In this document: in pieces, positions 13,611-61,387 of the stretch
Position numbering within the stretch: position 1 is the first letter of the stretch
Layout: each line of letters starts with the position of its first letter
Assembly (NCBI GenBank): GCA_902779035.1
Contig: CACZAH010000001.1
Span: 24,591-88,590 of the forward strand
Origin: an uncultured Erysipelotrichaceae bacterium
GTDB taxonomy: Bacteria > Bacillota_I > Bacilli_A > RF39 > UBA660
Direction: 5' to 3'
Length of the DNA stretch: 64,000 nucleotides
Made by a program: the position numbers and the translations under genes
The notes under the pieces: model-generated
Database searches by the model: none
What the model saw: the letters and a program-made list of their open reading frames with translations, nothing else
What the model was told of the DNA's origin: nothing

Positions 13611-15200
13611 TTAAATACTATTTAATATACTAAATTTGTAAATTATTTCAATATTTTTATCTTTATCTATAACTATTTTATCAATGATTGTTTGTATTAA
13701 TTCTCTTGTAGGATTTTCGATATCAATTAAAGATTTTATTTTATCTTCGTATTCTTTTAAATTATCAGTCTTGTTTTTTATCACTTTAGTATCAGTTTTT
13801 AATTTACTTATTTCAGTTCTTAATTTACTTAATAAAACTTCTGTATCATTAGCAATTCTTTTATACATTTCATCTGACACTAAACCTTTAAATTTATCTT
13901 CATAAAGCATATCAAGTTTATTCAAATACTCTTTTTCTTTATTCTCTAACACAGTTATTTTTTCTTTTATTTTAGAATCATTCTTTTTCTTATTATTAAT
14001 TTCACTTGCTATATCAGATATATTAACAACATCTAGATATTGTTTGCAAGTTTTTTTAATAACATCTAGTAAGGCCTGCTCTAGTTTATCATAAGGCATA
14101 AAATGTGGATAGCACATTTTTCTTTTTGGATCTCTCGAATATCTATTGCAATTAATAGTCCAATAGTCATGATTCTTTCTATAAGTAATAGTTAATGTAT
14201 TACCACATTCCTTACAATATAATAAATTTTCAAATAGTCTTTTTTCTCTTTTAGTATTATTAGTAATATTAGTTCTTTTCACATTATTTTGTACTTTTTC
14301 AAATATAATTCTATCAATGATTGGTTCATGAGTATTCTTAACAATACTCCAATTTGCTCTAGGTAGTGATTTTTTCTTTTTTGATTTATATGATACTTTA
14401 GTTTGAACACTTTGAACCATATCTCCAACATACATTTGGTTTTTAAGTATCTTTTTTATTGAAGATATTGTCCACATAGGATTATATTTATTATTAGCAT
14501 GAGAATTTTTTCTTTTAAGACTACTTGGTGTTTTAATTTTATTCTCATTTAGATAAGTTGTAATCTCAGATAAGCCTACCCCTTCATATGCCATATCAAA
14601 TATCTTCTTAACAACTGGTGCATATTCAGGATCTGGTATTAAGTGTCCTTTATCCTCTGGATCCCTTAAAAACCCATAACTTGGAGCACTACCAATAAAC
14701 TTACCATTTTTCCTTTTATCATTTAAAACATTTCTGATTTTAACTGAGTTTTGCTTACTATAATAATCATTACAAGCAATTATGAAAGTTGAAGAATCGT
14801 TACTTGCCTGATTTAAAGCATTGTCATAACCTTCTTGCATAGATATAAATCTTATTCCATTTTCAGGAAAGAAAGTTTCTACATAATATCCAGTCATAAC
14901 ATGATCTCTACCTAATCTTGATAAGTCTTTTACTATTACAAGATTGATAACTTTATTTTTGATATCTTCCATCATTTTATTAAATCCTGGTCTATCAAAG
15001 TCAGTGCCAGAAAAACCATCATCAACATATTCTGCTACAAAGATAAAACCTTTTTCTTTTACAAAATTCATTAGCATATTTCTTTGATTAAGGACACTCT
15101 CACTATCAGATTCGTAAGACTTTCCTTCATCTGCTTCAGATAATCTTATATATATTCCTGCTTTGTAAAACTTTGGCGTTTCTATTAAAGTGCTATACAA
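13611..15200 (-). CDS. Large serine recombinase (resolvase domain, recombinase domain, zinc ribbon, coiled coil)
   Basis: 529 aa with AGIYIRLSEADEG (catalytic Ser context), VDDGFSGTDFDRPGF, VIVKDLSRLGRD, a Cys motif CKECGN...C and a C-terminal coiled coil rich in K/E/L. Confidence 0.9.
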   Translation of the reverse strand: MYSTLIETPKFYKAGIYIRLSEADEGKSYESDSESVLNQRNMLMNFVKEKGFIFVAEYVDDGFSGTDFDRPGFNKMMEDIKNKVINLVIVKDLSRLGRDHVMTGYYVETFFPENGIRFISMQEGYDNALNQASNDSSTFIIACNDYYSKQNSVKIRNVLNDKRKNGKFIGSAPSYGFLRDPEDKGHLIPDPEYAPVVKKIFDMAYEGVGLSEITTYLNENKIKTPSSLKRKNSHANNKYNPMWTISSIKKILKNQMYVGDMVQSVQTKVSYKSKKKKSLPRANWSIVKNTHEPIIDRIIFEKVQNNVKRTNITNNTKREKRLFENLLYCKECGNTLTITYRKNHDYWTINCNRYSRDPKRKMCYPHFMPYDKLEQALLDVIKKTCKQYLDVVNISDIASEINNKKKNDSKIKEKITVLENKEKEYLNKLDMLYEDKFKGLVSDEMYKRIANDTEVLLSKLRTEISKLKTDTKVIKNKTDNLKEYEDKIKSLIDIENPTRELIQTIIDKIVIDKDKNIEIIYKFSILNSI

Positions 15201-16648: not shown

Positions 16649-19600
16649 TTACATTTTATTACTAGATATACTAAAAAATTTATCAAAAAAATTCAATAAT
16701 TTATCAATAACTTTATTTTTCTTTTCTTGTCTATCATTAGTAGGTGTAAACATATTCATAGGTGGAAGTATTGTAGATATTTCAGTTCCATTTGTTTCTA
16801 CTCTACCCTGCTCAAAAGCTTTTTGAATAAAGCTATATGTTTCATCTTTATTTAGTTTTTCTTCACTTATTATCTTATCTAGTTCTTCCTTCTTTTTACT
16901 ATTCATAAATGATTCGAAATCAGCATATACATTTGAATTCTGATCTAACGAATCAATAAATGCCATGATTAAGTCCTTCTTATTTCTTAAGTCTGGACTT
17001 GCCATGATTGTTTTTTGAATAGTAACTAGTATCTCTTTATCTTCCATATTAGAATCATGATACTTTTTAACTAATCCTAAAATGTAATCTATATCAACTT
17101 CAATAGATTTAATAAGCTCCATTTCAAATACTACATCATCAGTAACATCTGTCTTCTCTTGCTTAGCCCTATTTCTAAACTCATTATATAGTTCAATATA
17201 AATACTATGATAGTCTTGTTTATCTCTTTCATTAATAAGTTCATCATCTTTGAACTCGTCAAAAGAAGATAAAATATTAGTTACTTTAAGAATAGCACCA
17301 TATAGTTTGATAAACTCTTTCTGATCTGCTTCACTTTGCATTAACTCACCGGGTGCGAATTTAGAAGTTAACTTTTCTACTAATGATTTATATCCCTCAA
17401 ATGTTTTACCATTATCATCCTCATATCCATAGTAGTAATCTTTATATGGTTTTAATAACACAACACCATGAGCTTGCTCATCTCCGAACTTAGCAAGGGC
17501 CTCATTTAATCTGTCTTCAAGATTTCTAAATGAAACTATATTACCATATGTTTTTACACTATTTAATATTCTATTAGTTCTAGAGAAAGCTTGAATTAAT
17601 CCATGCCACTTAAGGTTCTTATCAACCCATAATGTATTTAATGTTTTAGCATCAAATCCAGTTAAGAACATATTAGCAACAATTAATATATCAATCTCTC
17701 TATTCTTCATTCTTAAAGAAACATCTTTATAATAGTTTTGGAAACGTTCTGATGAAGTATCATAACTAGTACCAAACATCTTATTATAATCTTTAATAGC
17801 GTTATCTAAGAATGTACGATCATCATTACTTAATGCTTCAGTTGATTCAGAGTTCTCATCTATCACCCCATCTTCTCCATTAACACCATAAGAGTAAATT
17901 AAAGCTACCTTTAAATCGCTATTATTAAGTACTAACTCCTTCTTAAACTCAGCGTAATACTCCTTAGCCATCTTAATACTAGAAACAGCAAATATAGAGT
18001 TGAATCCATTTACATTCTTCTTAGATTTAATCTCTTCAGTATTTTGTTTCTTAGCAACATCTATTACATTATCTAATGTAGAATAAACATAACTTTCTGA
18101 AGTTTTTGTCTTAGTACTAAAATGATCAATAATATAATTAGTGATTAAATTAATTCTTATTTGATTATCAAATAACTTCTCTTCATCAATGTTATAAACT
18201 TTCTCATCCTTAACATCATCTGATATATCTACTCTACCAACATACTCGTATCTAAATGGTAATACATTCTTATCAGCAATAGCATTAACTATTGTATATG
18301 TATGTAATCTCTCCCCAAAGATTTGCTCAGTTGTTTCAGATACACCTTTAATAGTTCTAGCATTCTCTGGGAATATTGGTGTACCAGTAAACCCAAATAG
18401 ATAATACTTATTAAATTTCTTAATAATAGCTTTGTGCATGTCACCAAATTGAGATCTATGACACTCATCAAAGATAAATACTACATGTTTATTAAATACT
18501 TCACTATTCTCGTTCTTTTTAATAAATTGAGAAAGCTTTTGAATAGTAGTAATAATTATCTTAGCATTAGGATCGTATAATTGTTCCTCTAACACTTTAG
18601 TAGATGTATTAGAGTTTGCTGCACCTTTTTTAAAACGATCATACTCTTTCATTGTTTGATAGTCCAAATCTTTTCTATCTACAACGAATAATACTTTATC
18701 TATAAAGTCTAACTTACTAGCAAGTTGTGATGTCTTAAATGAAGTAAGTGTTTTACCAGAACCAGTTGTATGCCAGATATAACCACCTGACTTAATATCA
18801 CCATAGAACTTGTTATTATAGGCAATAGTTATTCTATTTAATATCTTCTCAGTAGCAACTATTTGATAAGGTCTCATAACAAGTAAATCTTCTTCACTTG
18901 TAAACACACAATACTTGGTTAAAACATTAAGTAAAGTATGTTTAGTTAAGAAGGTTTTAGTAAAATCAATTAAATCAGTTATACCATTATTCTTCTGATC
19001 TGCCCAATAAGAAGTAAATTCAAATGAATTGGACTTCTTTTTCTTTTGGTTATTAATATGAAACTCCCTAGTGGTATTAGAATAATACTTAGTTAAAGTA
19101 CCATTAGATATTACGAATATTTGAACAAAGTTATATAGACCAGATCCAGCCCAGAAGCTATCACGCTGATATCTTTCTATTTGATTAAAAGCTTCTCTAA
19201 GATCTACTCCTCTTTTCTTTAACTCTACATGTACTAAAGGTAAACCATTAACTAGAATAGTAACATCATATCTATTGTCATAATTACCTTCATTATTAAC
19301 ATATTGATTTAACACTTGAACACTATTATTATGAATGTTGTTCTTATCTATTAAATAGATATTTCTCTTAGCACCAGAATCAAGAGTAATCTCTTGTTTA
19401 TAGTCTTCTTGTATTAATCTTGTTTTCTCAATAATATAATCATTCTTATTAGCAATTACTTTAGTAAAAAAAGAATCCCATTCACCATCAGTAAAAGTAT
19501 AATTATTTAACTTTTCTAATTGTTTTCTTAAGTTAAGAATTAATTCATCTTCAGAGTTGATAGTTAATCTCTCATATCCTTGATCAACCAATGTCTTAAT

Positions 19601-19717
19601 TAGTTCTTTTTCAAGAGCATCTTCGCTTTGAAAAGAAGTAGCTACTCTATTTAATCCAGTATACTCTGCTAATACAGTAGAATTATCATTTTCACTTATT
19701 AAACCTATACTACTCAC
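16649..19717 (-). CDS. hsdR: Type I restriction enzyme R subunit
   Basis: 1022 aa (GTG start) with TGSGKT Walker A, FDECHRSQ (DEAD/H box), GFTGTP and QAFSRTNR motifs. Last gene of the R-M operon. Confidence 0.9.
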   Translation of the reverse strand: MSSIGLISENDNSTVLAEYTGLNRVATSFQSEDALEKELIKTLVDQGYERLTINSEDELILNLRKQLEKLNNYTFTDGEWDSFFTKVIANKNDYIIEKTRLIQEDYKQEITLDSGAKRNIYLIDKNNIHNNSVQVLNQYVNNEGNYDNRYDVTILVNGLPLVHVELKKRGVDLREAFNQIERYQRDSFWAGSGLYNFVQIFVISNGTLTKYYSNTTREFHINNQKKKKSNSFEFTSYWADQKNNGITDLIDFTKTFLTKHTLLNVLTKYCVFTSEEDLLVMRPYQIVATEKILNRITIAYNNKFYGDIKSGGYIWHTTGSGKTLTSFKTSQLASKLDFIDKVLFVVDRKDLDYQTMKEYDRFKKGAANSNTSTKVLEEQLYDPNAKIIITTIQKLSQFIKKNENSEVFNKHVVFIFDECHRSQFGDMHKAIIKKFNKYYLFGFTGTPIFPENARTIKGVSETTEQIFGERLHTYTIVNAIADKNVLPFRYEYVGRVDISDDVKDEKVYNIDEEKLFDNQIRINLITNYIIDHFSTKTKTSESYVYSTLDNVIDVAKKQNTEEIKSKKNVNGFNSIFAVSSIKMAKEYYAEFKKELVLNNSDLKVALIYSYGVNGEDGVIDENSESTEALSNDDRTFLDNAIKDYNKMFGTSYDTSSERFQNYYKDVSLRMKNREIDILIVANMFLTGFDAKTLNTLWVDKNLKWHGLIQAFSRTNRILNSVKTYGNIVSFRNLEDRLNEALAKFGDEQAHGVVLLKPYKDYYYGYEDDNGKTFEGYKSLVEKLTSKFAPGELMQSEADQKEFIKLYGAILKVTNILSSFDEFKDDELINERDKQDYHSIYIELYNEFRNRAKQEKTDVTDDVVFEMELIKSIEVDIDYILGLVKKYHDSNMEDKEILVTIQKTIMASPDLRNKKDLIMAFIDSLDQNSNVYADFESFMNSKKKEELDKIISEEKLNKDETYSFIQKAFEQGRVETNGTEISTILPPMNMFTPTNDRQEKKNKVIDKLLNFFDKFFSISSNKM

Positions 19718-20855
19718 TCTTATTCACCTCTTTTTGTGCTTGATAATAACAAGCAATTGTAACGAGCAATTTTATCTCAGTAAAGCTCATACCAACAGTA
19801 TTGATATTAACCCAATCTTTAGCAAACTCTTTTGAAAAAAGATCTGCTTGTGTTAATCCCCAATATATATCACCATATCCATCATCGTTAAGATAACAAT
19901 ATATCTTCTCCAATTGATAATGCATCATTGGATACACTTCTCTTATATGAGGGGTAAGTATAGGACTAGTTATTTGATATAACTCGTCATAATCCATATT
20001 GTCTATGCAATCACAAATAGCTGGAATTGAATTAATAATTAAATCTCTATACTTATTTACTATTTCAATATTAGTTTCATCAGTTATATTACAAGTTAAA
20101 TAATCATATAGTTCTTTTATATCTGAATCTTCAAGATATCTTTCATTTAAAATATCAATAACATCTAATAATATTGCACCACTATCTTGATTTCTATTTA
20201 CTTTTCTATTAGACCATTCTTTCTCTTTGTTATTAATAATATCTTGAAAAGCATTAATTATATCATTAATCTTTTCAAATTTAAGTCTAATATATTCCTT
20301 TAAATCTGCAAACTTAATACAAATGTGGAACATCTCTCGCTTATTACTATATACCATTACACCAACTGAATCTTTTAAATCTGGAAAAATACCACCCCTA
20401 TTATTCAAAATGTAAGGACTATATTGAACCTCACCTTTAATCGGATTAGGAATAGATCTATCAGTAATAAATGGATGTGCAAAAAATAAAGATCTAAGAT
20501 AATCGAAGAACTTATCATCACCCTTATAATCACTTGCAGGTATTAAAAATGGTTCCTCTTCACAATAACTTTGAAATATATTTGTGGGTTTATTTTCAAT
20601 ATTTAAAATATTAGAAACAACCTTAATTCCATCTCTAATAATACAGAAGTGATGAAAAAGCATTATAATTTCATCCTCAGACGTTGGAATATTTTGATGC
20701 GAGTTAAGGTACATTACCGAATTATCAAACTGATCCATAACTGCACATATTAGATTAAACTTTTCTTTCTCATTAACATCTGCAACAAATATATCAGTTT
20801 TATTAATAACATCTCTTAAGTCATAGACTAATTTACCATCTAATAAATCATTCAT
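19710..20855 (-). CDS. Unknown protein embedded between hsdS and hsdR (two Rx4-6H HEPN-like motifs)
   Basis: Start ATG 20855 overlaps the hsdS stop (ATGAATGA) and its stop overlaps the hsdR GTG (GTGAGTAG). No Walker motif. RSLFFAH at aa ~126-132 and REVYPMMH at ~310-317 (ORF-track numbering). Confidence 0.7.
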   Translation of the reverse strand: MNDLLDGKLVYDLRDVINKTDIFVADVNEKEKFNLICAVMDQFDNSVMYLNSHQNIPTSEDEIIMLFHHFCIIRDGIKVVSNILNIENKPTNIFQSYCEEEPFLIPASDYKGDDKFFDYLRSLFFAHPFITDRSIPNPIKGEVQYSPYILNNRGGIFPDLKDSVGVMVYSNKREMFHICIKFADLKEYIRLKFEKINDIINAFQDIINNKEKEWSNRKVNRNQDSGAILLDVIDILNERYLEDSDIKELYDYLTCNITDETNIEIVNKYRDLIINSIPAICDCIDNMDYDELYQITSPILTPHIREVYPMMHYQLEKIYCYLNDDGYGDIYWGLTQADLFSKEFAKDWVNINTVGMSFTEIKLLVTIACYYQAQKEVNKSE

Positions 20856-21930
20856 GGCATAATTCCTCAAAACTTAATAGTTTGTTTCTATAATACTCAT
20901 ATTGTTGTCTTCTTAATTCTATCTCTGCAGGAATACCTGCTGTTATATCATTAACCAATGCATCAAACTTATCTAGTATATTAACTATACGATTTTGTTC
21001 TTCTATAGAAGGTACCATAATAGATAATCTATTAAGTGTTGCTTGTGTCATACTTGGAACTCCACCAGCAATATTTAATCTATCTAAATGTTGATTTTGA
21101 ATGAAGTAATAAATATATTTAGGTATCACTTTGCTCTCATCTATTTCAGTATAATAGATAGTATCGACATTCCAGAAAGGTTTATCTACATAAAATACAT
21201 TTCCTAATGAACCCTTTCTTGGAATTAGCACAGAAGGTTTATCATAAGTAAAACTATCCACATACGTCATAATTCCACCTGATCCATAAACAGGAACATT
21301 ACCTTCATTCAAATGTTTATAATCCCTACCATTTTTAATTGTCAAAATATCTTGTAATTTGCATTCATTATATTTCTTTTTAAATAATTCTCCACGCCAA
21401 AACTCGTATTGACTCTTTCTCGCTTCTAGCTCCGCTTCTAGCTCCGCTTCTAGCTCGCCAAATTTATCAAGAATTTTTACTATTTCTTCTTGCACTTCTA
21501 TTGGTGGAGTTGGAACATTAAATCCTTGCAACATAGGTAAAGTAATATATGGAACTGAACCTTTCTTCGAATTCTCATCTATGTGAACTTTTAAATAAGC
21601 ATTTAAATAATGATATAGATACTTTGGAATTATACTATCTATAAAGTTCATTAAAACATAGGTTCTTTGATATGCATTAAACTTTCCAACATAATAATTA
21701 AGATGTCCAACTTGACTTCCATTACCTGATATTAAAATTGCTTCTCCATCAAATGCATACTTATCTATTTTAAAAGGTTTAGCATCACAAGTGAAAAATG
21801 CATACTCACCATCTTCTACCATAGCATTCGCATTTAATTTACCAGTTGTTATAGATACAATTTTATCTAAAGATTTATATTCTACACCATTAGGACATAA
21901 TTTATTAATCAAATCATTAATCCTACTCAT
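20848..21930 (-). CDS. hsdS: Type I restriction enzyme S (specificity) subunit
   Basis: Start at ATG 21930 (MSRINDLINKLCPNGVEYKSL). Two TRD halves separated by a central helix containing ELEAELEAELEA. C-terminal conserved helix EIELRRQQYEYYRNKLL. Confidence 0.9.
   Translation of the reverse strand: MSRINDLINKLCPNGVEYKSLDKIVSITTGKLNANAMVEDGEYAFFTCDAKPFKIDKYAFDGEAILISGNGSQVGHLNYYVGKFNAYQRTYVLMNFIDSIIPKYLYHYLNAYLKVHIDENSKKGSVPYITLPMLQGFNVPTPPIEVQEEIVKILDKFGELEAELEAELEARKSQYEFWRGELFKKKYNECKLQDILTIKNGRDYKHLNEGNVPVYGSGGIMTYVDSFTYDKPSVLIPRKGSLGNVFYVDKPFWNVDTIYYTEIDESKVIPKYIYYFIQNQHLDRLNIAGGVPSMTQATLNRLSIMVPSIEEQNRIVNILDKFDALVNDITAGIPAEIELRRQQYEYYRNKLLSFEELCHE
21421..21456. repeat. Perfect 3 x 12-bp tandem repeat inside the hsdS central conserved region
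   Basis: cgcttctagctc x3, encoding (ELEA)x3 on the minus strand. Confidence 0.95.
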
Positions 21931-22564
21931 TAGAATCACCGCCCACATTATAAAAATCAAGATTCTCTCTAGGATTTTGACCATATACACATAAATACTT
22001 ACCTATTAATAAGTACATTCTCTTAAAGCTTGATTTATCAACAGAATCTAAAATCTTTTCTGATAAAGATAATTTATTTATATATTCCTCTGATATCATT
22101 TCCATGCTTTGAATTATTAACTCATTATAATCAAATGTATCATACTCTTTAGATTTTTCGTTCTTAGTATTTATAATCTCTATAATCTTATTTTCTATAT
22201 ATTCATATGATGGTTTACTATTAAAATTCATATTATCATCATATTTAACTGCAACAAAATCAAAAAGAAACTTATACTTATCATCAGTTTTATCTAAAAT
22301 ATACATTTCATGTCTAGATAATACTCCAACATCATTCTTGTCTAACACACTATTGTCCTTAGAATTGAGAATCCTTTCTTTATATCCAGGATAATTAATT
22401 AATCTCGCAACAGATTCATTTAAATAAAACTCTGTAATCTCTACACCAAATGTAACATTATCAGCTTGTAACACAAAATCAGGTTGTTCATGCTCTTTAA
22501 TTGTTATTTTATCAGAATTATAAATCTTCTTTAATATTTGTAGTTCTCTATCTTTCTTACTCAT
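21923..22564 (-). CDS. Unknown protein embedded between hsdM and hsdS (possible PD-(D/E)xK-like core)
   Basis: Start ATG 22564 overlaps the hsdM stop (ATGAGTAA) and its stop overlaps the hsdS start. Sequence EQPDFVLQADNVTFGVEITEF is reminiscent of a nuclease PD...E core (inference only). Confidence 0.65.
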   Translation of the reverse strand: MSKKDRELQILKKIYNSDKITIKEHEQPDFVLQADNVTFGVEITEFYLNESVARLINYPGYKERILNSKDNSVLDKNDVGVLSRHEMYILDKTDDKYKFLFDFVAVKYDDNMNFNSKPSYEYIENKIIEIINTKNEKSKEYDTFDYNELIIQSMEMISEEYINKLSLSEKILDSVDKSSFKRMYLLIGKYLCVYGQNPRENLDFYNVGGDSNE

Positions 22565-24122
22565 GATAATCAACCTCTAATTCTTTGATTATCGCCTCTA
22601 GTTCTTCCCTAATCTTTTGTTGTCTTGGTACTACTTGGGATAGTTTTTCATTAACCGCTTTAATATCAATAGTAGTATCTTCTCCATTAGTCTTTAAGTA
22701 TGAATTAACAGATATATTATAATCATTATCTTTAACTTCTTCATATGCAGCTAAATAAGATTTACCTTCTACACTTTTTCTATCTTTTAATAGAGAAACA
22801 ATACTCTCTATATTTTCATCAGATAACTTATTCTTATTAGTTGTTCTAACACATTCATCAGTAGCATCTACAAATAAGATATTGTTATCAGTCTTATTCT
22901 TCTTTAATACTAAAATACATGTTGCAATAGAAGTACCAAAGAATAAATCACTAGGTAATTGAATAACTGTATCAACAAAGTTATTATCAATCATATATTG
23001 TCTTATCTTTTGCTCTGCTCCACCTCTATATAAAACTCCTGGGAACTCAACTATTGCTGCAGTACCTTTAGAAGATAGCCAAGATAACATATGCATAGTA
23101 AATGCTAAGTCAGCTTTAGATGTAGGAGCTAAAACACCAGCAGGTGCAAATCTCTCATCATTAATAAGAATTGGGTTCTCTTTACCAGCCCATTTAATAG
23201 AATAAGGTGGATTAGAAACTATAGCATCAAATGGTTCATCATCCCAATGCGCAGGATGTATTAAAGTATCACCACGTTCAATACTAAAGTTATTATAGTT
23301 AATATTATGTAAGAACATATTAATTCTAGCTAAGTTATATGTTGTTAAGTTAATTTCTTGTCCAAAGAAACCTTGCTTAACATTCTCTTTTCCTAATATC
23401 TTAGCAAACTTAAGTAATAGACCTCCAGATCCACAAGCAGGATCATACACTTTATTAACAGAAGTCTTATTCATTATAACTATTCTAGCAAGTAATTCTC
23501 CTACTTCTTGAGGCGTGAAGAACTCACCACCAGATTTACCTGCAGAAGAGGCATACATAGTCATTAAGAACTCATATGCATCACCAAACAAATCTATTGT
23601 TCCTTCATTATAATCACCAAAATTTAAATCACCTATAGCATTAAGTAACTTAACTAACTTCTCATTTCTCTCATCTACAGTATTACCTAACTTATTATCT
23701 ATTGTAAAATCATCAAATAAACCTTTAACATCATCTTCTGAAGCAGTGCCTCTAGCAGAAGCTTCAATATTGTTAAATACATTAGATATAACTACATTCA
23801 AGTTCTCATTCTTATCAGCACCTTTTCTAATATTACAGAATAGTTCACTAGGTAAAATGAAGAAACCTTTCTCCTCAAGTATTTGAGATTTACCAAGTAA
23901 TGCTTCTTCATCAGATATATTTCTATATTCAAAATCAGCTATACCAGCTTTTCTTTGATTTTCATTAACATAGTTTTCTATATTTTCAGATATAAATCTA
24001 TAAAATAACAATCCTAATACGTATTGTTTAAAATCCCATCCATCAACAGAACCTCTAAGTTCATTTGCTATCTTCCAAATAGTCTTATGAAGTTCTTCTC
24101 TTTCTCGTTCCTTATTATTCAT
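22557..24122 (-). CDS. hsdM: Type I restriction enzyme M subunit (N6-adenine methyltransferase)
   Basis: 521 aa with GEFFTPQEV, VYDPACGSGGLL (SAM motif) and VSNPPYSIKW (NPPY catalytic motif). Confidence 0.9.
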   Translation of the reverse strand: MNNKEREREELHKTIWKIANELRGSVDGWDFKQYVLGLLFYRFISENIENYVNENQRKAGIADFEYRNISDEEALLGKSQILEEKGFFILPSELFCNIRKGADKNENLNVVISNVFNNIEASARGTASEDDVKGLFDDFTIDNKLGNTVDERNEKLVKLLNAIGDLNFGDYNEGTIDLFGDAYEFLMTMYASSAGKSGGEFFTPQEVGELLARIVIMNKTSVNKVYDPACGSGGLLLKFAKILGKENVKQGFFGQEINLTTYNLARINMFLHNINYNNFSIERGDTLIHPAHWDDEPFDAIVSNPPYSIKWAGKENPILINDERFAPAGVLAPTSKADLAFTMHMLSWLSSKGTAAIVEFPGVLYRGGAEQKIRQYMIDNNFVDTVIQLPSDLFFGTSIATCILVLKKNKTDNNILFVDATDECVRTTNKNKLSDENIESIVSLLKDRKSVEGKSYLAAYEEVKDNDYNISVNSYLKTNGEDTTIDIKAVNEKLSQVVPRQQKIREELEAIIKELEVDYHE

Positions 24123-24140: not shown

Positions 24141-24980
24141 CTAATCAAATAATTCTTTAACAATTAAATCTTGTGAATGTAAATTATTATTTTTACCTAA
24201 TAATAAATTTTCATAAAATTTAACTAAATAATTACTATCTTCTTTTATATTCAAATAATTATTAAAATAATTACTTCTAACTAAAGCATTTCTAAAATAA
24301 ATTGATTTATCTTTAAATAAAGTATTATCTACTTCATAACCTAAACTAATTAAATATTTTTCTATAAATAATGCTGTAGTCCTAGTATTACCTTCCCTAA
24401 ATGGATGAACTTGCCATATACTAGATGAAAATTTAGTAATATTATTTATTACTTCTACAACATTCATATCTTTATAATTCTTTTCTTTTTCTAAAGATAT
24501 ATCATATTCTAATGATTCTTTTAATGTCTTACAATCACCATAAGCAACTGAATCATTATTAAGTATTTTCTCATGTTTAGAAAAATCTATATTTCTAAAC
24601 TCTCCTGCAAATTCATAAACATCTTGAAATAAATATTTATGAACATATTTTAAATAATCAACAGATAATTTAAAATTATCAATTTGTAATAATTCAACAA
24701 TTCTTGTAGATACAAAATCACATTCTAATTCATTATGATTTAATTCTTGTTTTTTATCTTTTTCAATATAATATTCTCTCAACTCTTCTTCTACTTGCTT
24801 AATAGTTAAATTACCACTAACATTTTCTTCTAATAATTTTTCCAAATATTTAGAAGGTTTTAAATTATCTACTTCTTGAAGACCTATAGCCATATCCCAC
24901 TCTAGTTGTTTTACATATCCTTCTGGTTTAGTTTCTTCTGTATATTCAACATTACTTGAATCTAATTCTTTTTCACTCAT
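24141..24980 (-). CDS. Fic/DOC (Fido) family protein
   Basis: 279 aa with the Fic motif HPFREGNTRTTALF. 18 nt upstream of hsdM. Confidence 0.85.
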   Translation of the reverse strand: MSEKELDSSNVEYTEETKPEGYVKQLEWDMAIGLQEVDNLKPSKYLEKLLEENVSGNLTIKQVEEELREYYIEKDKKQELNHNELECDFVSTRIVELLQIDNFKLSVDYLKYVHKYLFQDVYEFAGEFRNIDFSKHEKILNNDSVAYGDCKTLKESLEYDISLEKEKNYKDMNVVEVINNITKFSSSIWQVHPFREGNTRTTALFIEKYLISLGYEVDNTLFKDKSIYFRNALVRSNYFNNYLNIKEDSNYLVKFYENLLLGKNNNLHSQDLIVKELFD

Positions 24981-24992
24981 TTAATTAACCTC

Positions 24993-25595
24993 CTATCTCA
25001 CTGCATAATCTACTAAAGTTCTAACTTTTTCATATATATTAAATATTTTAGAATACACTAGTAATTTATCTATATCTTTATCACTGCTATTAAAATAATC
25101 ATGTAATATATTATTTTGTAATTCTAAATCAAAATCATCACTTTTTAACATATCACAAACACATCTTTCAGCATTATATACTTTAATTGGATTATTAAAC
25201 ATATTGTTAATTTCAATAATACCAATATTATAATATTTATCTGCTACATAATGTACTTTATAATTGCTTAATACCCTTTTCTTACTACTAACAGTTATTT
25301 CTATTTCTTCTGGTAATTCTTTAATTAAACCTAACATACTTAATGCTGTCTTATATGAATATATGGCATCAGGATATCTTTTTTGAAAAACATACTCATC
25401 ATCAACTAATATATTGCTATCAACATATAAACCATGTGAAACTTTATTTATTAATCCATTATCAACATATTTTTTTATCAATGGTTTACTAATATTTAGT
25501 TTTAAAAAATCTGATGTAGATATGTATCCATGATTAGCATCTAAAAACTGTTTTATTTTATCTTCATTAGTCATAGAATCACCATTTACTTTCAT
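24993..25595 (-). CDS. AbiEi-like (type IV TA antitoxin-type) winged-helix regulator
   Basis: 200 aa with GYISTSDFLKLNISKPLIKKYVDNGLINKVSHGLYV, which resembles the AbiEi_4 N-terminal domain. First gene of the operon, 12 nt upstream of fic. Confidence 0.55.
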   Translation of the reverse strand: MKVNGDSMTNEDKIKQFLDANHGYISTSDFLKLNISKPLIKKYVDNGLINKVSHGLYVDSNILVDDEYVFQKRYPDAIYSYKTALSMLGLIKELPEEIEITVSSKKRVLSNYKVHYVADKYYNIGIIEINNMFNNPIKVYNAERCVCDMLKSDDFDLELQNNILHDYFNSSDKDIDKLLVYSKIFNIYEKVRTLVDYAVR

Positions 25596-25863: not shown

Positions 25864-27429
25864 TTATACAATAAGATTATTAATAAAATTTGAGACAACT
25901 TCATTATTTTTTGACAAAATATATACATTATTTTTTGCTCTAGTTATTGCAACAAAAAGCTTATTTTTGAATTCTTCATTTATGACATTATATTGATTAT
26001 CTAAAACTATAATTACATTATCACTTTCTAATCCTTTTGAAGTATGTATAGTCATTATTCTATTTTCCTTTTCGACAGTATAGTAATTATATTTATATTT
26101 CTCATCTTCTAATTTATTGATAATTTCAAAAATAGTTTCATCTGATATAATTATACCTAATTTTAAAAAGCTTTCTTTTAAAAATTCATCTAATTGAATT
26201 TTTCGTCTTAAATTAAAATCTCTTTGTTTTATTTTTGTATTACAACTTAACAAAATTGATTCAATTTTTTCATAAGGATATTTATATTTATCAATAACAT
26301 TATCATAATTTAAGTAATATCTTAGTAGTTCATCTATTATATCTGAATTTTCATAATAGTCATTATATTTTTTGTTATCCAAATCTAATTTTTTTGTGTA
26401 TATTATATCATAATCAGTTTTATATAGTTCATATAACTCTTGTGCTGTATTATTGCTCTCGGTTAATATAAAAGATGAACCAGTTAATCCATTTAAAAAT
26501 TTTGAATTTACTTCAGATATAAGATTTACATGTGATTTATCTTTATAACTTTTAACAAGACTTGAATCATATATTTTATTTGCATAATAAATTATGCTAG
26601 GGTGACAACGTATACTTACATTTATTTTATATTCACTATATCCAAAATTAGTTAATTTTCTAAATAGTTCTGGTCTAGCTCCTCTAAATTGATAAATCGA
26701 CTGATTAGCATCACCAACCATAATGATGTTAACATTAGTGTTATCTTTTAAAGCTTTGAAAAATAAATGTTGAAAAAAATTTAAATCCTGTGCTTCATCT
26801 ATATATATAGTTGTATATTTATTATTAAACCACTCTATAAAAACTTTCATTTTTACTATATATGTTGCAAATAAATATGTTGGAAAAGAAACCTCATATT
26901 GACATTCTTTTAATTTTTTTATCCACTCCGAATAATATTTATTACCAATTTCCTTTAAAGATTGATTCTTATCATAATATCTTGTCAACTCATTAATTGT
27001 AAGATTCTTGCCATTATTCTTTAAGATAAATTCATCCTGAATTTTAACATATTCTTCAGGAAAAAATATTTTTTTATCAATTATAACTTGTTCAGAAAAT
27101 AAATTAGCATTAATAAGAGCCCTATTAACAAATTTACATACAGTATCTTTAACAAATGAATCAATGGTTCCAATATAACTATTATTTATTTCTAGTTTTT
27201 TGTTAATTCGTGATTTCAATTCTTCAGAAGCCTCACGAGTAAAAGAGCAAGCTACTACACCTTGATATTCTTCTATTTCATTAAGCTCTTTTTCAATTCT
27301 TTTTACAATAGTATAAGTTTTTCCTGAGCCCGGGCATGCTGATACAAAAATATATTTTTCACTAGAGCTTATAATCTTTTCTTGTTCAAAATCTAAGATT
27401 TCTTTTAATTCATCTGATATATTATTCAT
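25864..27429 (-). CDS. gajB: Gabija GajB-like UvrD/Rep-family helicase
   Basis: 521 aa with CPGSGKTYT (Walker A), IYIDEAQDLN (DExQD) and TIHTSKGLESDNV. Overlaps gajA by 8 nt. Confidence 0.8.
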   Translation of the reverse strand: MNNISDELKEILDFEQEKIISSSEKYIFVSACPGSGKTYTIVKRIEKELNEIEEYQGVVACSFTREASEELKSRINKKLEINNSYIGTIDSFVKDTVCKFVNRALINANLFSEQVIIDKKIFFPEEYVKIQDEFILKNNGKNLTINELTRYYDKNQSLKEIGNKYYSEWIKKLKECQYEVSFPTYLFATYIVKMKVFIEWFNNKYTTIYIDEAQDLNFFQHLFFKALKDNTNVNIIMVGDANQSIYQFRGARPELFRKLTNFGYSEYKINVSIRCHPSIIYYANKIYDSSLVKSYKDKSHVNLISEVNSKFLNGLTGSSFILTESNNTAQELYELYKTDYDIIYTKKLDLDNKKYNDYYENSDIIDELLRYYLNYDNVIDKYKYPYEKIESILLSCNTKIKQRDFNLRRKIQLDEFLKESFLKLGIIISDETIFEIINKLEDEKYKYNYYTVEKENRIMTIHTSKGLESDNVIIVLDNQYNVINEEFKNKLFVAITRAKNNVYILSKNNEVVSNFINNLIV

Positions 27430-29125
27430 ATAAAAAACTCACCAATACTGATTTCATATTACTAGAACAAATTTTAATATCCATATTATATTCGTTAATA
27501 AATGTATGCAAATTTTTTAATTTAGCTTGCTTTAAAAATGATATTGCTTCATCAGATATTTTATTTTTAGGATTCATATTTAAATAATCGATTAGATCTT
27601 GCTCAAAACCATCATTATGTTTTGAAAATAGTATGTTATTCTTAAATAATAATTTACAAATATCATCCATTTTATCTTCAACACTTTGAATTTTAGTTTC
27701 TCTATCTTTAAATCTAAATTCTAATTTTTCTACACCCAACAATTTTTTTAATTCTTCTTGAGCCTCACTAGAAATATACTCAACACATCTTTCTAAACCG
27801 GCATATCTATATTCATCAATACGTGGAACTTTAAAAATATCATTGTCAGTCTTTATATAGACTTTTATACCTAAATTTTCTAATAATTTTTTTATGGTTT
27901 TAAATGCAATACCATTTACGGCATAAATACCAAATCTATATTTATTAATTTTCTCCAAAAAACTATTATCTTTTGTCATTAGTAAACTATAAAAATATTT
28001 TTCGGAATCTCCCTCAATCAATAATACGTTATCATAATATAACATTTCAGCGACTTCAACATTAATCAAATATCCGAATTTTTTGAAATCTTCATTATTT
28101 ATATTATCAAATCTATTTATAATTCTATCGCCTGTTAATCTATTGCAAGATATTTTAATGATTTGATTTACTTTTTCAAAATCAATCGTATAAGGAGAAT
28201 GAGTAGTGATTATAAGTTGACTTGGATTCATTTGTAATAAAGCACTAATATAGATCTTTTGCAATAAAACATATAAATGATTTTCTGGTTCCTCTATAAT
28301 ATAGATTTTTTGTTTATCATTTTTATATATTTTGGATTTTAAAATCATAGAAAAGATTTTGCTTTTTCCGTCACCAATATTATTAAATTCATTATCATTT
28401 GCGTCATAAGTAGCAACATTTAAAGATTTATAAATATTTTCTTCTTTTATATTTGGAATAACTCTAAAATTCAAATCTTCAAGCAACTCTTTAAATTCAC
28501 CTTTTTCATTTAATTCTTGTTGAATTTGATCTATTATTTTCTCATCTTGTATTGTTTCATTTAGATTATTTATTTCTTTTAATATATTTTCACTAAAATA
28601 TATCCCATTTTCTTTGTTATCAGTTTCTTTAAATTTAAAGAAATCTTTTTTTGAATTTTCTATATCATATACTGGGTTTATGTATACAATTGATAATACT
28701 TTATCTAGCTGAGTTTGTGTATTTATTCTTACTTCTTCAAAATCAATATTAGGATCACCATATATTAATGTATCTTCATATTCTAAAGTATCTTCATTGT
28801 ATGTAGAAGTTAACTTAGCTATCATGTATTTCTTTCCTTCGTTATCAATATGAATATAATTACCTATAATAGCAGATTGTTCATTAGTTAAGTCATCTGC
28901 TGTTAGCTTTATTTCAATTTCAATATTATCTTTATTTGAATTTGTTGAGTCAGCAGCAACTAATGGAATACGTCTTTTATTATAATCTAAAACTTTTAAA
29001 ATTGCAGAGCAAATATTCGTTTTTCCACTATCATTTTGACCAATAAGTATTGAAACCTTCTCAACCGTATCAATTTCTATATTCAAACCTCTATAATTCT
29101 TAACTTTTAATCCACATATCAACAT
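27422..29125 (-). CDS. gajA: Gabija GajA-like OLD-family ATPase plus TOPRIM nuclease
   Basis: Start ATG 29125 after GGAGG. Motifs GQNDSGKTN (Walker A), IIEEPENHL (Walker B / D-loop region), HSP and LLIEGDSEKYF (Toprim). Confidence 0.8.
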   Translation of the reverse strand: MLICGLKVKNYRGLNIEIDTVEKVSILIGQNDSGKTNICSAILKVLDYNKRRIPLVAADSTNSNKDNIEIEIKLTADDLTNEQSAIIGNYIHIDNEGKKYMIAKLTSTYNEDTLEYEDTLIYGDPNIDFEEVRINTQTQLDKVLSIVYINPVYDIENSKKDFFKFKETDNKENGIYFSENILKEINNLNETIQDEKIIDQIQQELNEKGEFKELLEDLNFRVIPNIKEENIYKSLNVATYDANDNEFNNIGDGKSKIFSMILKSKIYKNDKQKIYIIEEPENHLYVLLQKIYISALLQMNPSQLIITTHSPYTIDFEKVNQIIKISCNRLTGDRIINRFDNINNEDFKKFGYLINVEVAEMLYYDNVLLIEGDSEKYFYSLLMTKDNSFLEKINKYRFGIYAVNGIAFKTIKKLLENLGIKVYIKTDNDIFKVPRIDEYRYAGLERCVEYISSEAQEELKKLLGVEKLEFRFKDRETKIQSVEDKMDDICKLLFKNNILFSKHNDGFEQDLIDYLNMNPKNKISDEAISFLKQAKLKNLHTFINEYNMDIKICSSNMKSVLVSFLYE

Positions 29126-29197
29126 CTTAACAACCTCCAAAAATATATAATTATTATACCATACAAAAGCACTATCATCAGTGATAGTGCTAAAATT

Positions 29198-29872: not shown

Positions 29873-29919
29873 TATAATCACCTATATTATCATATGAAAA
29901 AAGCACAAATACGTGCTTA
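29837..29919. repeat. 83-bp direct repeat, copy A (terminator, promoter/RBS and first 12 codons of the amidase)
   Basis: Identical to 31317-31399 except for 3 mismatches (29866, 29890, 29910). Confidence 0.95.
29897..29918 (-). terminator. Hairpin terminator (aagcac/gtgctt plus T-run) overlapping the stop of the AAA ATPase gene
   Basis: The minus strand reads aagcac-gtattt-gtgctt-tttt. The same structure recurs at 31377-31398. Confidence 0.5.
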
Positions 29920-31125
29920 ACTATCAATTAGCCAATCAATTATATTCTTATGAATTATACCATTTTGTGACATATCAAATTTATCCATTGATATTACATA
30001 CTTAGGATAATTATCAGCTACATTATCATAAGCATTAAACTCTCTATTAATAACTTTATCATCTGTAAGGTAGTAGCACACTTGATAATACTCTTTATTA
30101 CCATCTTTGAACGCAATAAAGTCTATCTCACCATTTTCAATATTACCAACATTAACATCATATCCTCTATAAACTAACTCATTATAAACTACGTTTTCTA
30201 AATATGCACCCATCTGTTTTTTCTTTGAAAAATTTAATACTTGTCCTAATCCTAAATCAGTTAAATAATACTTATATTTACCATTAAGTATTCTTTTACC
30301 CCTAACATCATATCTATCAACTTTATTAATTAAATGGGCTTTGCACATATATTCTAGATAATTGTATAAAGTTGTTTTCCCAACACCTCTATCATCATTT
30401 ACCTCGAAGTATTTAACGAGATTATCTGCAGAAAATGTTTGTGATGGTGTTGTAACAATATATTCTGCAATTCTATTAAATAATTCAATATCTGTTACAT
30501 TAAATCTGTTTATAATGTCTTTTACAACTATTGAATTATAAACATCTGTTAAATATGTTCTAATTGAATATTCATCATCTAAAGCAAATCTCTGTGGTAG
30601 TCCACCCCAGATTACATAATCAGTAAACTTGTCTTCTAATTTATACTTATCTAATTCATAATTCTTAAATTCACAAACTTCTTTAAAAGAAAATGGTACG
30701 ATTTTATAACTTACATATCTTCCAGATAGTAAAGAAGATAATTCTCCGGATAATAAATCACTATTAGACCCAGTTATAAATATTGAAATCATATTACCAT
30801 ATTTTGCTTTATATGAATTAACTGTTTTTTCCCAATCTTTAATATATTGTATCTCATCAAAAAATAGATAATACTTATCTTTATTAATAATTCTTTCACT
30901 AATATATTTATCTAAATCTTTATGTGTTTGTATTTCTGAATACTCTGACAATTCAAAATTAATACTTATAATATTTTCTTCTTTTACCCCAGATTCTTTT
31001 ATTTCATTTATTATTTGTTTTAAAATAACAGATTTACCAGACCTTCTTATTCCAGTAATAACTTTAATTAAATCCTGATTATAAAACGGCCTTATCTTTT
31101 TTAAATATTTTTCTCTTATTATCAT
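29917..31125 (-). CDS. AAA-family ATPase with a DUF4143-like C-terminal domain
   Basis: Start ATG 31125 after aggagg. IRPFYNQDLIKVITGIRRSGKSV (Walker A), YLFFDEIQY (Walker B) and a C-terminal GEIDF... nuclease-like/DUF4143-type region. Confidence 0.75.
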   Translation of the reverse strand: MIIREKYLKKIRPFYNQDLIKVITGIRRSGKSVILKQIINEIKESGVKEENIISINFELSEYSEIQTHKDLDKYISERIINKDKYYLFFDEIQYIKDWEKTVNSYKAKYGNMISIFITGSNSDLLSGELSSLLSGRYVSYKIVPFSFKEVCEFKNYELDKYKLEDKFTDYVIWGGLPQRFALDDEYSIRTYLTDVYNSIVVKDIINRFNVTDIELFNRIAEYIVTTPSQTFSADNLVKYFEVNDDRGVGKTTLYNYLEYMCKAHLINKVDRYDVRGKRILNGKYKYYLTDLGLGQVLNFSKKKQMGAYLENVVYNELVYRGYDVNVGNIENGEIDFIAFKDGNKEYYQVCYYLTDDKVINREFNAYDNVADNYPKYVISMDKFDMSQNGIIHKNIIDWLIDS

Positions 31126-31316
31126 AGTAATTCCTCCTAAAGACATTATACATCAGTTTTGTTTAATAGTCAATTTTGTCTTTTGCACAAGACTAAATTA
31201 CAATTTATGACATTTTTGTCTTAAGGCAAAGAACAATGCTGAACAAAAAAAATATTTAATTTTGTATTCGCATGTATTCATAGCCACTCAACATTTTGGG
31301 TCAAACTGATTTATCT

Positions 31317-31468: not shown

Positions 31469-33034
31469 TTACCTTCCGCAACACTTCTTATATTTCTTAC
31501 CTGATCCACATGGACAAGGTTCATTTCTACCTATTTTTTTATCTTTTTTTATTGTACTATTATTTGATTCTTGACAGTATCCATTACTAATCCAAAGTGG
31601 TATTATATTTTTATATTTCTTTACTATATCGTATATTTTATTAGATACAGATTTACTAAGGCTAAATTCATCTTTTATCTCTGCCATTATTTCCTTATTT
31701 ATTCCACCAAGTCTAGTTAGAATATTAATATTAAATTCAAGTTCATCATTACCATTACATACTTTATTAATCTCATCTAAATAATTGTTTATTGTAGTTA
31801 ATAATTCAGGAGTTAATTCTCGGTAATCACCACTTATTTTCTTTTTTTCAAGTAATTCTTTAGCAAGATAATCATCATTAACTATCGAATAATAGTTTTT
31901 GTGAATAACATGTTCTCCCATTGGCTTTATAGTATCATCCATCGCTTCAAAATCTAAATCAATACCGTGATTATTCTTTAATAATTTCTGTAATACACTC
32001 TTTTCAATTACACCATTCATCTCAAAATAACCAAAAATAATATCTCTAATATAGTAATCAAATGCATCTTTTAGATTATCAAAACCCTGTTCTTTTAAAT
32101 CTAACTTATCATAGTCTTCTAACTCGTTAACATCAACACTCTTTAATATATCCTTAACTTCTTTTGGAACAAGTGTCTTAATTATACCGTTATCATCATA
32201 TGCAAATACAAAGCCTTGCATAAAATCATTATCAGAAAATTCATAAGTAATCTCTTGATGATTACAATTCATAAATCTATTGTACTCATCTACAGTAAAA
32301 TGTTTAACACTTTCTTTCATTGTCTCAATAATAGTGTTTTTTAAATCTTCTACTGACTTAGCTTCACCAAGATATGTATAATAAACATTATCATATCCAT
32401 CTTCATCGAGGCTTTTAAGACAGTTAATTAACGTTTCTTCTTTAGGCTTTTTATTTAATAATGTATCTTCAATAATACCATCAAAATCAAGATCATCGTT
32501 ATTTCTTCCATATGCTGACCAATATCTAAGTTTATCTCCATACTTATTAAATACTTTAATTATTTTATTGATATCCTTCTTTTTAACACCAGCGTGTTCA
32601 AGATAAGAAAGACGATCTTTATCTTTAATCAGTTCATCTTCAAAATAAATATCATCAAAAAGCCTTAAGGTAGCTGCAAGAATAAAAACATATTCCGCTA
32701 CTTGAGGTTCAATAATTTTATCTAACTCATCAAATAAAGTTCCAATATAAATCATATAATCCATAATATCATCGATAGTCAATAATCTTATTTTATAATC
32801 ATTTCTCAAAACCAACAGTTCGTTAAGTTCTTTAAGGTTATATCTGCTATAATACTTTCCATCAAAATATAAATCTTCATCTTTTAATGCAGACTTCTTT
32901 TCTTTATCACTTAATTTAACATTATTATATTTGCATATAGCATCTATATCATCATTAGATAAAGTTCCACATGCAAGTAAATAAGCCATAATAGCGGCTT
33001 TGAATGCTTTTTTACTGTTTAAATCAAAATTCAT
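31469..33034 (-). CDS. Unknown 521-aa protein with a C-terminal SEC-C metal-binding motif; fifth gene of the Wadjet operon
   Basis: C-terminus [18 protein letters not shown]. Only 9 nt downstream of jetD on the same strand. Confidence 0.7.
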
Positions 33035-33043: not shown

Positions 33044-34264
33044 CTAATCTACTCTTAAATACATAAATTCTTTTATATTATCTATATTCTTTTCTTGATA
33101 TCCAGCTTTCTTATTTAGTACTAATAAATCTTTAATAATACTTAATTCCTCACTTTCTATTTTGTTTAACTTGTTTAATCTTGATTTATTAATAGTCTCA
33201 CTTGATATAGAATTAATATAGTCATCTTTATTATAACAGATCAATTCTAATTCTTTATATCTTTTTTTCAAATTATCTGCAATAAGTAATCCTTCAGGAT
33301 CAAAGTCACCGTTATAATATAATTTATTTCCACTCAATACCAGCTTATCTAAAACTTTGTATAGTGTTATGTTGGGATTACCTGATGTAATTATAATTGA
33401 GTAATTAGTGTTTGCAAGACTATTTAGTATAGATGGGTTTTCAAATATATATACTCGTTTTTCTTTACTATCTATTCTATCCATACTAAGTACATTAGAT
33501 AAATTCATATTAAATATCTGCTTATTATTATAAAAAATATCTAATATCTCATTACCACATAAGTTATAAGTAATTATATAGTTAGATAATGAATCTACAT
33601 ATATATTGTATCTAGCAAGTAATTCTATTCTTTTATCATTAGTAGTAGGATAATCTTCGTTATTTATATAACACAATAGTTTTAAATACAGATTACTAGT
33701 TCTAGTGTTTAAATCTAGGTAATGCGGATTACCCGTTGTTGATGCATAAATAGATAAATTAATACTATTCTTAGGCATATTACTAAGTAAATTAAAGATA
33801 TTATCTAAATCACTATATAATAAATTATTATCTTTATTATAATTAGACTTTAATAAACGATAGATCTTAGAATTACTATCTTTAATACCTGGAATATATA
33901 ATTTATATTTATTAAGTAATTCACTAATCAAAGATTCATATGAAGAAATAACTAACTCCCTCTTCTCTTTTTTAGTTAGTATTTCTTCATTAAAATAACA
34001 CTTAAATAATCCGTCCCAAGTAAATCCTTGAAACCTTGTTTCATTAATCTTACGCGTTAATTCTTTATATGATATCTTTAATGTACTATCTATTTTTAGA
34101 GTCTTACCAAGTAAATCCCCAATGTCAATACACTCTTCTTTAGTTAAATTATTAATAGTAACAACTCCACTATATCTACCAATAGATATGTATTTATCTT
34201 TTAGTAATTTTAATAATCTTGATAAATGTTTAGATTTTAAATAAGTAGATAATTCTTTATTCAT
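33044..34264 (-). CDS. jetD: Wadjet JetD-like protein (DUF2399/Toprim-like C-terminus)
   Basis: 406 aa with C-terminal ...YYNGDFDPEGLLIADNL (Toprim-like DxD). Overlaps jetC by 8 nt. Fourth gene of a 486/399/1343/406-aa cassette. Confidence 0.7.
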   Translation of the reverse strand: MNKELSTYLKSKHLSRLLKLLKDKYISIGRYSGVVTINNLTKEECIDIGDLLGKTLKIDSTLKISYKELTRKINETRFQGFTWDGLFKCYFNEEILTKKEKRELVISSYESLISELLNKYKLYIPGIKDSNSKIYRLLKSNYNKDNNLLYSDLDNIFNLLSNMPKNSINLSIYASTTGNPHYLDLNTRTSNLYLKLLCYINNEDYPTTNDKRIELLARYNIYVDSLSNYIITYNLCGNEILDIFYNNKQIFNMNLSNVLSMDRIDSKEKRVYIFENPSILNSLANTNYSIIITSGNPNITLYKVLDKLVLSGNKLYYNGDFDPEGLLIADNLKKRYKELELICYNKDDYINSISSETINKSRLNKLNKIESEELSIIKDLLVLNKKAGYQEKNIDNIKEFMYLRVD

Positions 34265-54463: not shown

Positions 54464-54477
54464 ACAATTTCACTTCC

Positions 54478-55029: not shown

Positions 55030-55062
55030 AGAACCAATCCCTTCAAATCACAATTTGTATGA

Positions 55063-61140: not shown

Positions 61141-61143
61141 ATA

Positions 61144-61379: not shown

Positions 61380-61387
61380 AAAAATAA

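Follow-up and report, generated by a model that had tools for sequence, protein, structure and literature searches.

A mobile, previously undescribed protein family, probably anti-phage, occupies the PrrC position of a Type IC-like restriction–modification operon

What is the role of an unfamiliar gene that lies between hsdS and hsdR of a Type I restriction–modification (R-M) operon, the position held by PrrC in the Escherichia coli prr locus? The question is raised by a 64,000-nucleotide stretch of DNA (the window) from an uncultured Erysipelotrichaceae bacterium (contig CACZAH010000001.1, positions 24,591 to 88,590), which carries such a gene, here called the target. A first-pass annotation, made from the letters alone, had described the target as a protein of no recognised family, non-homologous to PrrC, with two HEPN-like Rx4-6H motifs, and had proposed that it might be an R-M-guarded RNase. 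Our sequence comparisons indicate that it is probably an anti-phage protein, from a previously undescribed, horizontally mobile, single-gene family of defence islands. The gene and its junctions are as follows.

Window 19710-20855, minus strand: target gene, an open reading frame (ORF) of 381 amino acids (aa) from its ATG; member of an unannotated family of ~380-aa proteins.
Window 20848-20855, minus strand: overlap of the hsdS stop with the target start; the target ATG overlaps the hsdS TGA, ATGAATGA.
Window 19710-19717, minus strand: overlap of the target stop with the hsdR start; the target TAG overlaps the hsdR GTG, GTGAGTAG.

Both overlaps can be read directly in the reverse complement of the window (positions 20848-20858, GCCATGAATGA; positions 19710-19720, AGAGTGAGTAG), which upholds the translational coupling proposed for both sides of the gene. 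The mechanical ORF list also contains a longer form of the target, starting at a TTG (19710-20870, 386 aa). The methionine encoded by the ATG (M1) is 98% conserved, and because the homologues begin there, 381 aa is the right length. The residue numbers of the first-pass annotation were five too high because the TTG start was used; the two R…H strings that it named are present, and in the 381-aa numbering used throughout this text they are RSLFFAH at residues 121-127 and REVYPMMH at residues 305-312.

The target is a member of a large and broadly distributed family. An exhaustive HMMER scan (E ≤ 1e-3) recovered at least 305 clusters at 50% identity, and the 136 full-length homologues in a 90%-clustered database are all labelled "hypothetical". 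Hosts include Bacillota, gut "Alphaproteobacteria" metagenome-assembled genomes (MAGs), Prevotella (Bacteroidota), Ignavibacteriaceae, a Deltaproteobacteria MAG and a Nanoarchaeia MAG, and members are also found in a temperate phage, in E. coli and on Bacillus plasmids. The target had no match in Pfam, PADLOC, NCBIfam or PHROGs, as the label of no recognised family had suggested, and the same was true of its distant homologues; in PADLOC-DB v2.0.0 it matched nothing at E ≤ 0.1, and none of the PDC or HEC models fits. A lenient Pfam scan of 90 family members (E ≤ 1) showed no recurrent family, and searches of PDB sequences, with the single protein or with the family profile, returned only weak matches to designed helical bundles. 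Longer members offered no informative domain fusion (P0223 is longer only by an N-terminal extension, in which a transmembrane segment is likely), and we found no description of the family in literature on the accession numbers and on embedded genes. The Walker A pattern [AG]x4GK[ST], noted earlier as missing, is indeed not found in the target, and it occurs in only 2 of the 90 members. The family is mostly acidic (median pI 5.4), and a reading of the target as a DNA mimic or anti-restriction protein on account of this acidity was rejected, since pI within the family reaches 9.4.

Which residues does this family retain? Conservation was scored on an alignment of 90 representatives that share 24-51% identity with the query, and two strings are of interest.

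Window 20475-20519, minus strand: family signature D113-x3-F117-x3-R121-x5-H127, DDKFFDYLRSLFFAH, the sole conserved Rx5H.
Window 19917-19940, minus strand: second "Rx6H" string, REVYPMMH (aa 305-312), a chance match because its R is kept in 13 of 90 members and its H in 21 of 90.

R121 is the only strictly invariant residue (90/90), with H127 retained in 89 of 90 and D113 in 99%; H127, D113, Y169 and R239 are each at least 96% conserved. As read from this alignment, the signature of the family is D-x3-F-x3-R-x5-H together with Y169 and R239, and D113, F117, R121, H127, Y169 and R239 are all kept in homologues from E. coli and from a Bacillus thuringiensis plasmid that are only 20-24% identical. 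Beside the second string it is the adjacent YQLEKI that is conserved (Y313 96%, K317 91%). The claim of two HEPN-like motifs thus survives by half: the first string is a conserved Rx4-6H, as expected of HEPN proteins, whereas the second is fortuitous and the number of matches is no more than chance would give. In 20,000 shuffles of the target, at least one Rx4-6H appeared in 49% and at least two in 13%, so that the motif itself is not diagnostic. Conservation over the full length, with invariant polar residues across phyla, points to purifying selection on a function.

The AlphaFold2 (AF2) model of the full target was confident (pLDDT 90, pTM 0.81), and a model of residues 1-195 alone was even more so (pLDDT 92, pTM 0.88). 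As this part is confidently predicted by itself, a two-module architecture is supported.

Window 20271-20855, minus strand: N-terminal alpha/beta module, aa 1-195; long helical hairpin, signature helix and small beta-sheet (AF2).
Window 19713-20270, minus strand: C-terminal all-helical module, aa 196-381, with conserved R239, N262, Y313/K317 (YQLEKI) and E360.

In the N-terminal module, the model places the hairpin helices at residues 27-52 and 60-83, followed by a short helix (113-124) that carries D113, F117 and R121, a loop, and a beta-sheet at 144-181. Foldseek searches were made against PDB and BFVD for the full model, and against PDB for the N-terminal module. Neither gave a significant match: the best E values for the full model were 0.5 (PDB) and 0.2 (BFVD), with PDB TM-scores below 0.2, and the best for the N-terminal module was 1.1. 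Weak matches to Rel/SAS and to GPCR-BRIL were dismissed as noise (TM < 0.2). As modelled, then, the target consists of two modules, neither of which resembles a known fold. Readings as a PD-(D/E)xK, GIY-YIG, 2H-phosphoesterase, tyrosine-recombinase-like or ART-like protein were set aside by reasoning, since spacing and topology did not fit and there was no structural match.

These models also bear on whether the target is a divergent HEPN RNase, in which R121-x5-H127 would be the active site and dimerisation would create a composite RNase centre. HEPN RNases, whose metal-independent activity depends on the R and the H of the motif, are common defence effectors; their families are notoriously divergent, and they share with the target an essentially invariant R-x5-H. 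However, no HEPN four-helix bundle came out of the Foldseek check of either confident model, with nothing at E < 0.2; no HEPN structure stood among the 50 matches listed for each PDB search (60 at E ≤ 10 in each), all of them at TM-scores of about 0.2 or lower. HEPN-clan Pfam models matched none of the 90 members at E ≤ 1, and hhalign of the family against a canonical PF05168 HEPN protein from the same slot of a sister operon gave a probability of 0.4% (hhalign templates were single sequences). The structural setting differs as well. Characterised HEPN domains have the R and the H of the motif on one long helix, whereas in our model R121 lies in the last turn of the short helix (113-124/126) and H127 at or just past its C-cap, leading into the loop and the beta-sheet. 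With only one conserved motif and neither a profile nor a structural match, the HEPN assignment was not borne out.

Is the target then a fixed part of the operon that carries it? The host operon is Type IC-like, and its R-M genes are as follows.

Window 16649-19717, minus strand: hsdR, EcoR124-type (Type IC-like), with HSDR_N, SWI2_SNF2, T1R_D3-like and EcoR124_C.
Window 20848-21990, minus strand: hsdS (Methylase_S, 2.1e-45).
Window 22557-24122, minus strand: hsdM (HsdM_N and N6_Mtase, 8e-110).

In 80 metagenomic relatives of the window HsdR with 58-94% identity (surveyed loci L068-L147; L numbers denote surveyed loci throughout), we measured the interval that separates the hsdS end from the hsdR start (the S-R slot). 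The slot was empty (≤ 60 nt) in 45 of them, contained an insert of 150-900 nt in 26, a member of the target family in 4 and another large insert in 5. Genuine PrrC, of ~355-365 aa and with Pfam AAA_13, occupies the S-R slot of four sister operons (L074, L075, L076 and L080), the L074 protein matching the PADLOC PrrC model at E 2.4e-78. Further occupants include PDC-S57 (T5orf172/MUG113-like, 8 loci), a HEPN protein (L070, PF05168), DUF3800 (L146) and at least five unannotated families. In the hsdM-hsdS slot, 35 of the 55 loci that could be measured carry cargo, among it PDC-S05, PDC-S46 and ABC-ATPase-like proteins, and one cargo family of 181-206 aa was found in both slots. Both junctions of this Type I lineage are therefore polymorphic cargo slots for known and candidate defence genes.

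The PrrC position assigned to the target by the first-pass annotation is thus strongly confirmed, since sister operons of the same HsdR lineage hold PrrC itself in this slot. PrrC of the E. coli prr locus (Type IC EcoprrI) is an anticodon nuclease that cleaves tRNA-Lys, kept latent by the R-M complex until an anti-restriction factor activates it. It is likewise a single gene of similar size (~355-396 aa), with hsdS and hsdR of a Type IC-like operon on either side. Unlike the target, it has an N-terminal ABC-ATPase with Walker A; the target has neither of these features, did not match PADLOC PrrC, and gave only 0.7% in hhalign of the family profile against the L074 PrrC, so that the supposition of non-homology was also correct. 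The target is positionally allelic to PrrC, and not homologous to it. A second difference is that PrrC has been reported almost exclusively in Type I R-M loci (bioRxiv 10.1101/2024.01.29.577857; PrrC as an operon-embedded gene is reviewed in PMC12707154), whereas the target family often stands alone.

This last point emerged from a genome survey of 56 species-level loci of the target family, in which the neighbouring genes were clustered. HsdS directly preceded the family member (-1) in 17 loci and was one gene further away (-2) in another 6; downstream, HsdR followed directly (+1) in 17 loci and came second (+2) in another 3. In embedded loci HsdM lies further upstream and all genes are on the same strand. 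These loci span two Type I lineages, in one of which HsdR is 55-92% identical to the window HsdR and in the other only 24-26%; in both, every embedded copy is in the S-R slot and none in the M-S slot. The family is thus nested on the same strand in multi-gene defence operons, recurrently and over several phyla, as is looked for in embedded defence candidates. Among the loci with at least ~3 kb on either side (well-flanked, n = 32), 14 were embedded and 18 lacked Type I genes on at least one side, 15 of them on both. The expected association with the hsdS-hsdR position is seen in one part of the family and does not extend to the rest.

No neighbour recurred across the standalone loci when their neighbours were clustered. 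Other defence genes are nonetheless plentiful in their flanks, which include D12, N6_N4 and C5 methyltransferases and an MmeI-type IIL enzyme (Type II/IIG R-M), an Avs2-like SMEK-STAND NTPase, PDC-S11, PDC-S32, mad2/mad8 and NERD+UvrD, and in some cases housekeeping genes (GroES/EL, TrmE, transporters). In the inducible temperate Latilactobacillus phage TMW 1.1381 P1 (L060, 5771-7149), a 34%-identical homologue follows a small HTH gene, with the amidase/holin lysis genes on one side of the pair and the integrase/repressor module on the other, a classic moron position; an IMG/VR scan gave only three contigs, all like Latilactobacillus prophage. E. coli has a homologue 20% identical to the target, copies of which (≥ 99% identity) are carried by 29 of 5,426 complete genomes of the species. 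It occurs on chromosomes as well as plasmids, and adjoins AbiH and PIN genes in both records inspected, plasmid pTB-nb3 (L062, 6001-7089) and the NCTC86 chromosome (L148, 7001-8089). The NCTC86 copy is inside an insertion that truncates umuC. The distant B. thuringiensis homologue is near HNH and HEPN/MNT genes, and apparently disrupted copies of the family also exist (for example in L044, L048, L053 and L068). A gene of ~203 aa was seen beside a target homologue both in an embedded locus (L036, at -1) and in a standalone one (L022, at +1), and could be an occasional partner.

The gene has moved repeatedly. Embedded and standalone copies are thoroughly interleaved on a neighbour-joining tree, which indicates that the gene entered and left Type I operons many times. 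At shorter range, the DNA of the window operon was compared with that of its four closest genome relatives (L004, L005, L007 and L009). Throughout, hsdM and hsdR hold ~80-90% identity and hsdS falls to ~50% outside its central conserved region. Identity of the target is 88% in L004 and 52-73% in L007 and L009. The copy in L005 (7001-8158) is a mosaic, with a 5' half at 58-69% and a 3' half at ~86% identity to the window, which places a recombination breakpoint near the predicted module boundary (~aa 185). From this pattern, the target is in a hypervariable cassette of hsdS plus cargo that is swapped between conserved hsdM and hsdR flanks.

How might such a protein act? Our preferred reading is that the target is an autonomous, mobile, second-line anti-phage effector that rides on the R-M operon and has a D/R/H/Y/R functional centre; as a complete package we put this forward tentatively, at a little less than an even chance. 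Its gene occupies the S-R cargo slot of a Type IC-like operon, coupled to both neighbours, and because of this coupling the protein would be made whenever the R-M system is made. It would be a self-sufficient effector of the abortive-infection type and not a subunit of the restriction enzyme, with the R-M operon serving as a vehicle for expression and transfer, giving a layered defence. To judge from conservation, the functional centre would most likely be D113/R121/H127 with Y169 and R239, in or beside the N-terminal module, and may be a metal-independent acid-base or phosphate-binding site for nucleic acid or a nucleotide. The fast-evolving remainder of the protein might serve in sensing or regulation. 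In treating an embedded gene as an effector, we lean on Payne et al. 2024 and Picton et al. 2021.

Several points weigh against this proposal. No fold or family match hints at the chemistry of the target, and the notion of an enzyme acting on nucleic acid would derive solely from the kind of residues that are conserved. The acidity of most members is atypical for nucleic-acid binders. A physical partnership with the R-M complex is an alternative that could account for the tight coupling and for the constant use of the S-R junction. Finally, ORFs in related loci were called by a simple longest-ORF heuristic, and many of these loci are MAG or metagenome contigs.

The partnership just mentioned is central to the alternative that survives best, in which the target is a PrrC-like guard, held latent on HsdMS/HsdR until a phage anti-restriction factor (Ocr, ArdA or Stp-like) knocks out the enzyme, and then released or activated to kill or arrest the cell. 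It would explain why the target lies in the exact slot of PrrC, and the overlaps with hsdS and hsdR at both ends would favour co-assembly. Embedding at S-R only, in two very divergent Type I lineages, and variation with hsdS as one cassette are also what a guard would be expected to show. Set against these are the minority of well-flanked loci that are embedded, the switching of close relatives between embedded and standalone states, and the phage, plasmid and E. coli copies that have no R-M partner. The same slot moreover holds unrelated cargos, and one cargo family uses both slots, which speaks for a site that tolerates insertions and against a specific partnership between proteins. The idea of R-M guarding is thus weakened: the slot is shared with PrrC, yet most well-flanked copies stand alone and are interleaved on the tree with embedded ones. 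We regard such a guard as unlikely, though with a chance large enough to be taken seriously. A more elaborate version is somewhat less likely again. In it the target would be a guard enzyme of new structure, doing the work of PrrC with a fold not seen before and a new D/R/H/Y catalytic centre. It would check that the Type I complex is intact and abort infection once a phage anti-restriction protein disables restriction; standalone copies would guard other partners or sense phage directly.

The target might alternatively have no part in defence, being selfish or neutral mobile cargo, or having an unrelated cellular role, and gathering at the permissive junctions of operons that are often transferred. 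The housekeeping neighbours of some standalone copies and the apparently disrupted copies would be in keeping with this. Full-length conservation with invariant polar residues across phyla would not, nor would the repeated co-location with known or candidate defence genes and with several types of R-M system, and we think this reading rather improbable. Less probable still is an R-M accessory that modulates the Type I enzyme, through restriction alleviation, control of assembly upon a new hsdS allele, or added specificity. Such a role would suit a translationally coupled, mostly acidic protein that travels with hsdS as a hypervariable cassette between conserved hsdM and hsdR. However, the target is missing from 76 of the 80 closely related operons (45 with an empty slot and 31 with other cargo), so that R-M function can do without it; copies that stand alone, at a distance from R-M systems, are common, and acidity is not universal. 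The divergent HEPN RNase, despite the HEPN protein in the same slot of L070, is very unlikely on the profile and structural evidence given above.

The autonomous effector that we favour also has to be placed among the other genes of its operon, one of which was not mentioned in the first-pass annotation.

Window 21923-22573, minus strand: second embedded unknown gene, in the hsdM-hsdS slot; 216 aa, or 213 aa from the ATG at 22564.

This gene overlaps both of its neighbours, had no match in Pfam, PADLOC, NCBIfam or PHROGs, and has 28 homologues, all of them unannotated. It is not present in the closest related operons (L004, L005, L007 and L009), and we therefore consider the two unknown genes to be independent cargos. 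A working pair of the two was rejected, as none of the 56 surveyed loci of the target family, and none of the 80 loci of the HsdR relatives, has the 216-aa gene.

Directly upstream of hsdM (window 24141-25595, minus strand) are an AbiEi-like gene (PADLOC AbiEi, 1.7e-54) and then a Fic-domain gene (PDC-S72, 3.4e-80), which appears to replace the usual AbiEii toxin beside the AbiEi-like gene. Upstream of the AbiEi-like gene there is a terminator-like site (25852-25823) and, after it, a strong promoter-like site (25630-25602); from 25595 down to 16649 the minus strand has no further terminator-like site. As no terminator precedes hsdR, the AbiEi-like and Fic genes may be co-transcribed with the R-M operon, and the sequence is compatible with one transcription unit comprising the AbiEi-like gene, Fic, hsdM, the 216-aa gene, hsdS, the target and hsdR. 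The promoter scan itself was uninformative, giving 75 sites against 79 expected by chance in DNA of 25% GC.

The surroundings form a single large minus-strand defence island of ~25% GC, dense in Gabija, Wadjet-like genes, GmrSD, Fic/AbiEi and two Type I systems. Gabija (25864-29140, minus strand) comprises GajA (AAA_15 and OLD-TOPRIM) and GajB (UvrD-like), and a Wadjet-like set of four genes (33044-40918, minus strand) comprises DUF2397, DUF2398, an SbcC-like gene and DUF3323/DUF2399; between them are an AAA_14/DUF4143 ATPase (29917-31146) and a SEC-C-motif protein (31469-33034). The second Type I system (51452-58276, minus strand) is of a different family, with T1RH-like_C in its HsdR, and a GmrSD Type IV enzyme lies immediately downstream of it (49351-51441). 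Its own hsdS-hsdR slot holds a small gene (54478-55029, 183 aa, two predicted N-terminal transmembrane helices) that had no homologue among the surveyed slot cargos. A large serine recombinase of 529 aa (13611-15200, minus strand) is found ~1.4 kb downstream of hsdR, beyond two small ORFs, and the window has tRNA genes at 5717-5803 and 61064-61756. It is possible that the island is an integrated mobile element or was one in the past.

How does the target compare with other genes carried inside immune operons? The phenomenon is known, from PrrC, TgvAB, guilt-by-embedding and rlo/mlo, and the protein family is not. In Campylobacter jejuni, R-linked and M-linked ORFs (rlo and mlo) of Type I loci are reported to have been described by Miller et al. 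2005 (cited in PMC11411939). The likeness is one of layout, the same five genes in the order hsdM-(mlo)-hsdS-(rlo)-hsdR with variable intervening genes, and the annotated rlo/mlo genes differ from the target in reportedly being ATPases or DUF262-type proteins. Closer in kind are the embedded defence genes, namely the HEC and PDC genes of the guilt-by-embedding approach (Payne et al. 2024), TgvAB in the Type I operon of Vibrio cholerae VPI-2 (PMC11411939) and BrxU in BREX. Like the target family, these are nested on the same strand in multi-gene immune operons and also occur elsewhere in defence islands; the target differs in fitting no PDC or HEC model of PADLOC v2 and in having an unrelated fold.

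New immune mechanisms have already come from genes that are embedded in R-M operons, as PrrC, TgvAB and the HEC systems attest. Hundreds of comparable candidates exist in embedded positions and defence islands, and the target stands out among them for its breadth, its confident novel structure, its allelism with PrrC and its native E. coli relative. The small set of invariant polar residues offers clear and clean targets for mutagenesis, and experiments should be straightforward because a distant homologue is native to E. coli, including NCTC86. Since the target alternates with PrrC in one slot, the lineage provides a natural system for asking whether slot cargos are wired to the R-M enzyme or merely hitch-hike with it. 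If the target does protect against phage, the family would add a new effector fold and a new chemistry to the catalogue of bacterial immunity.

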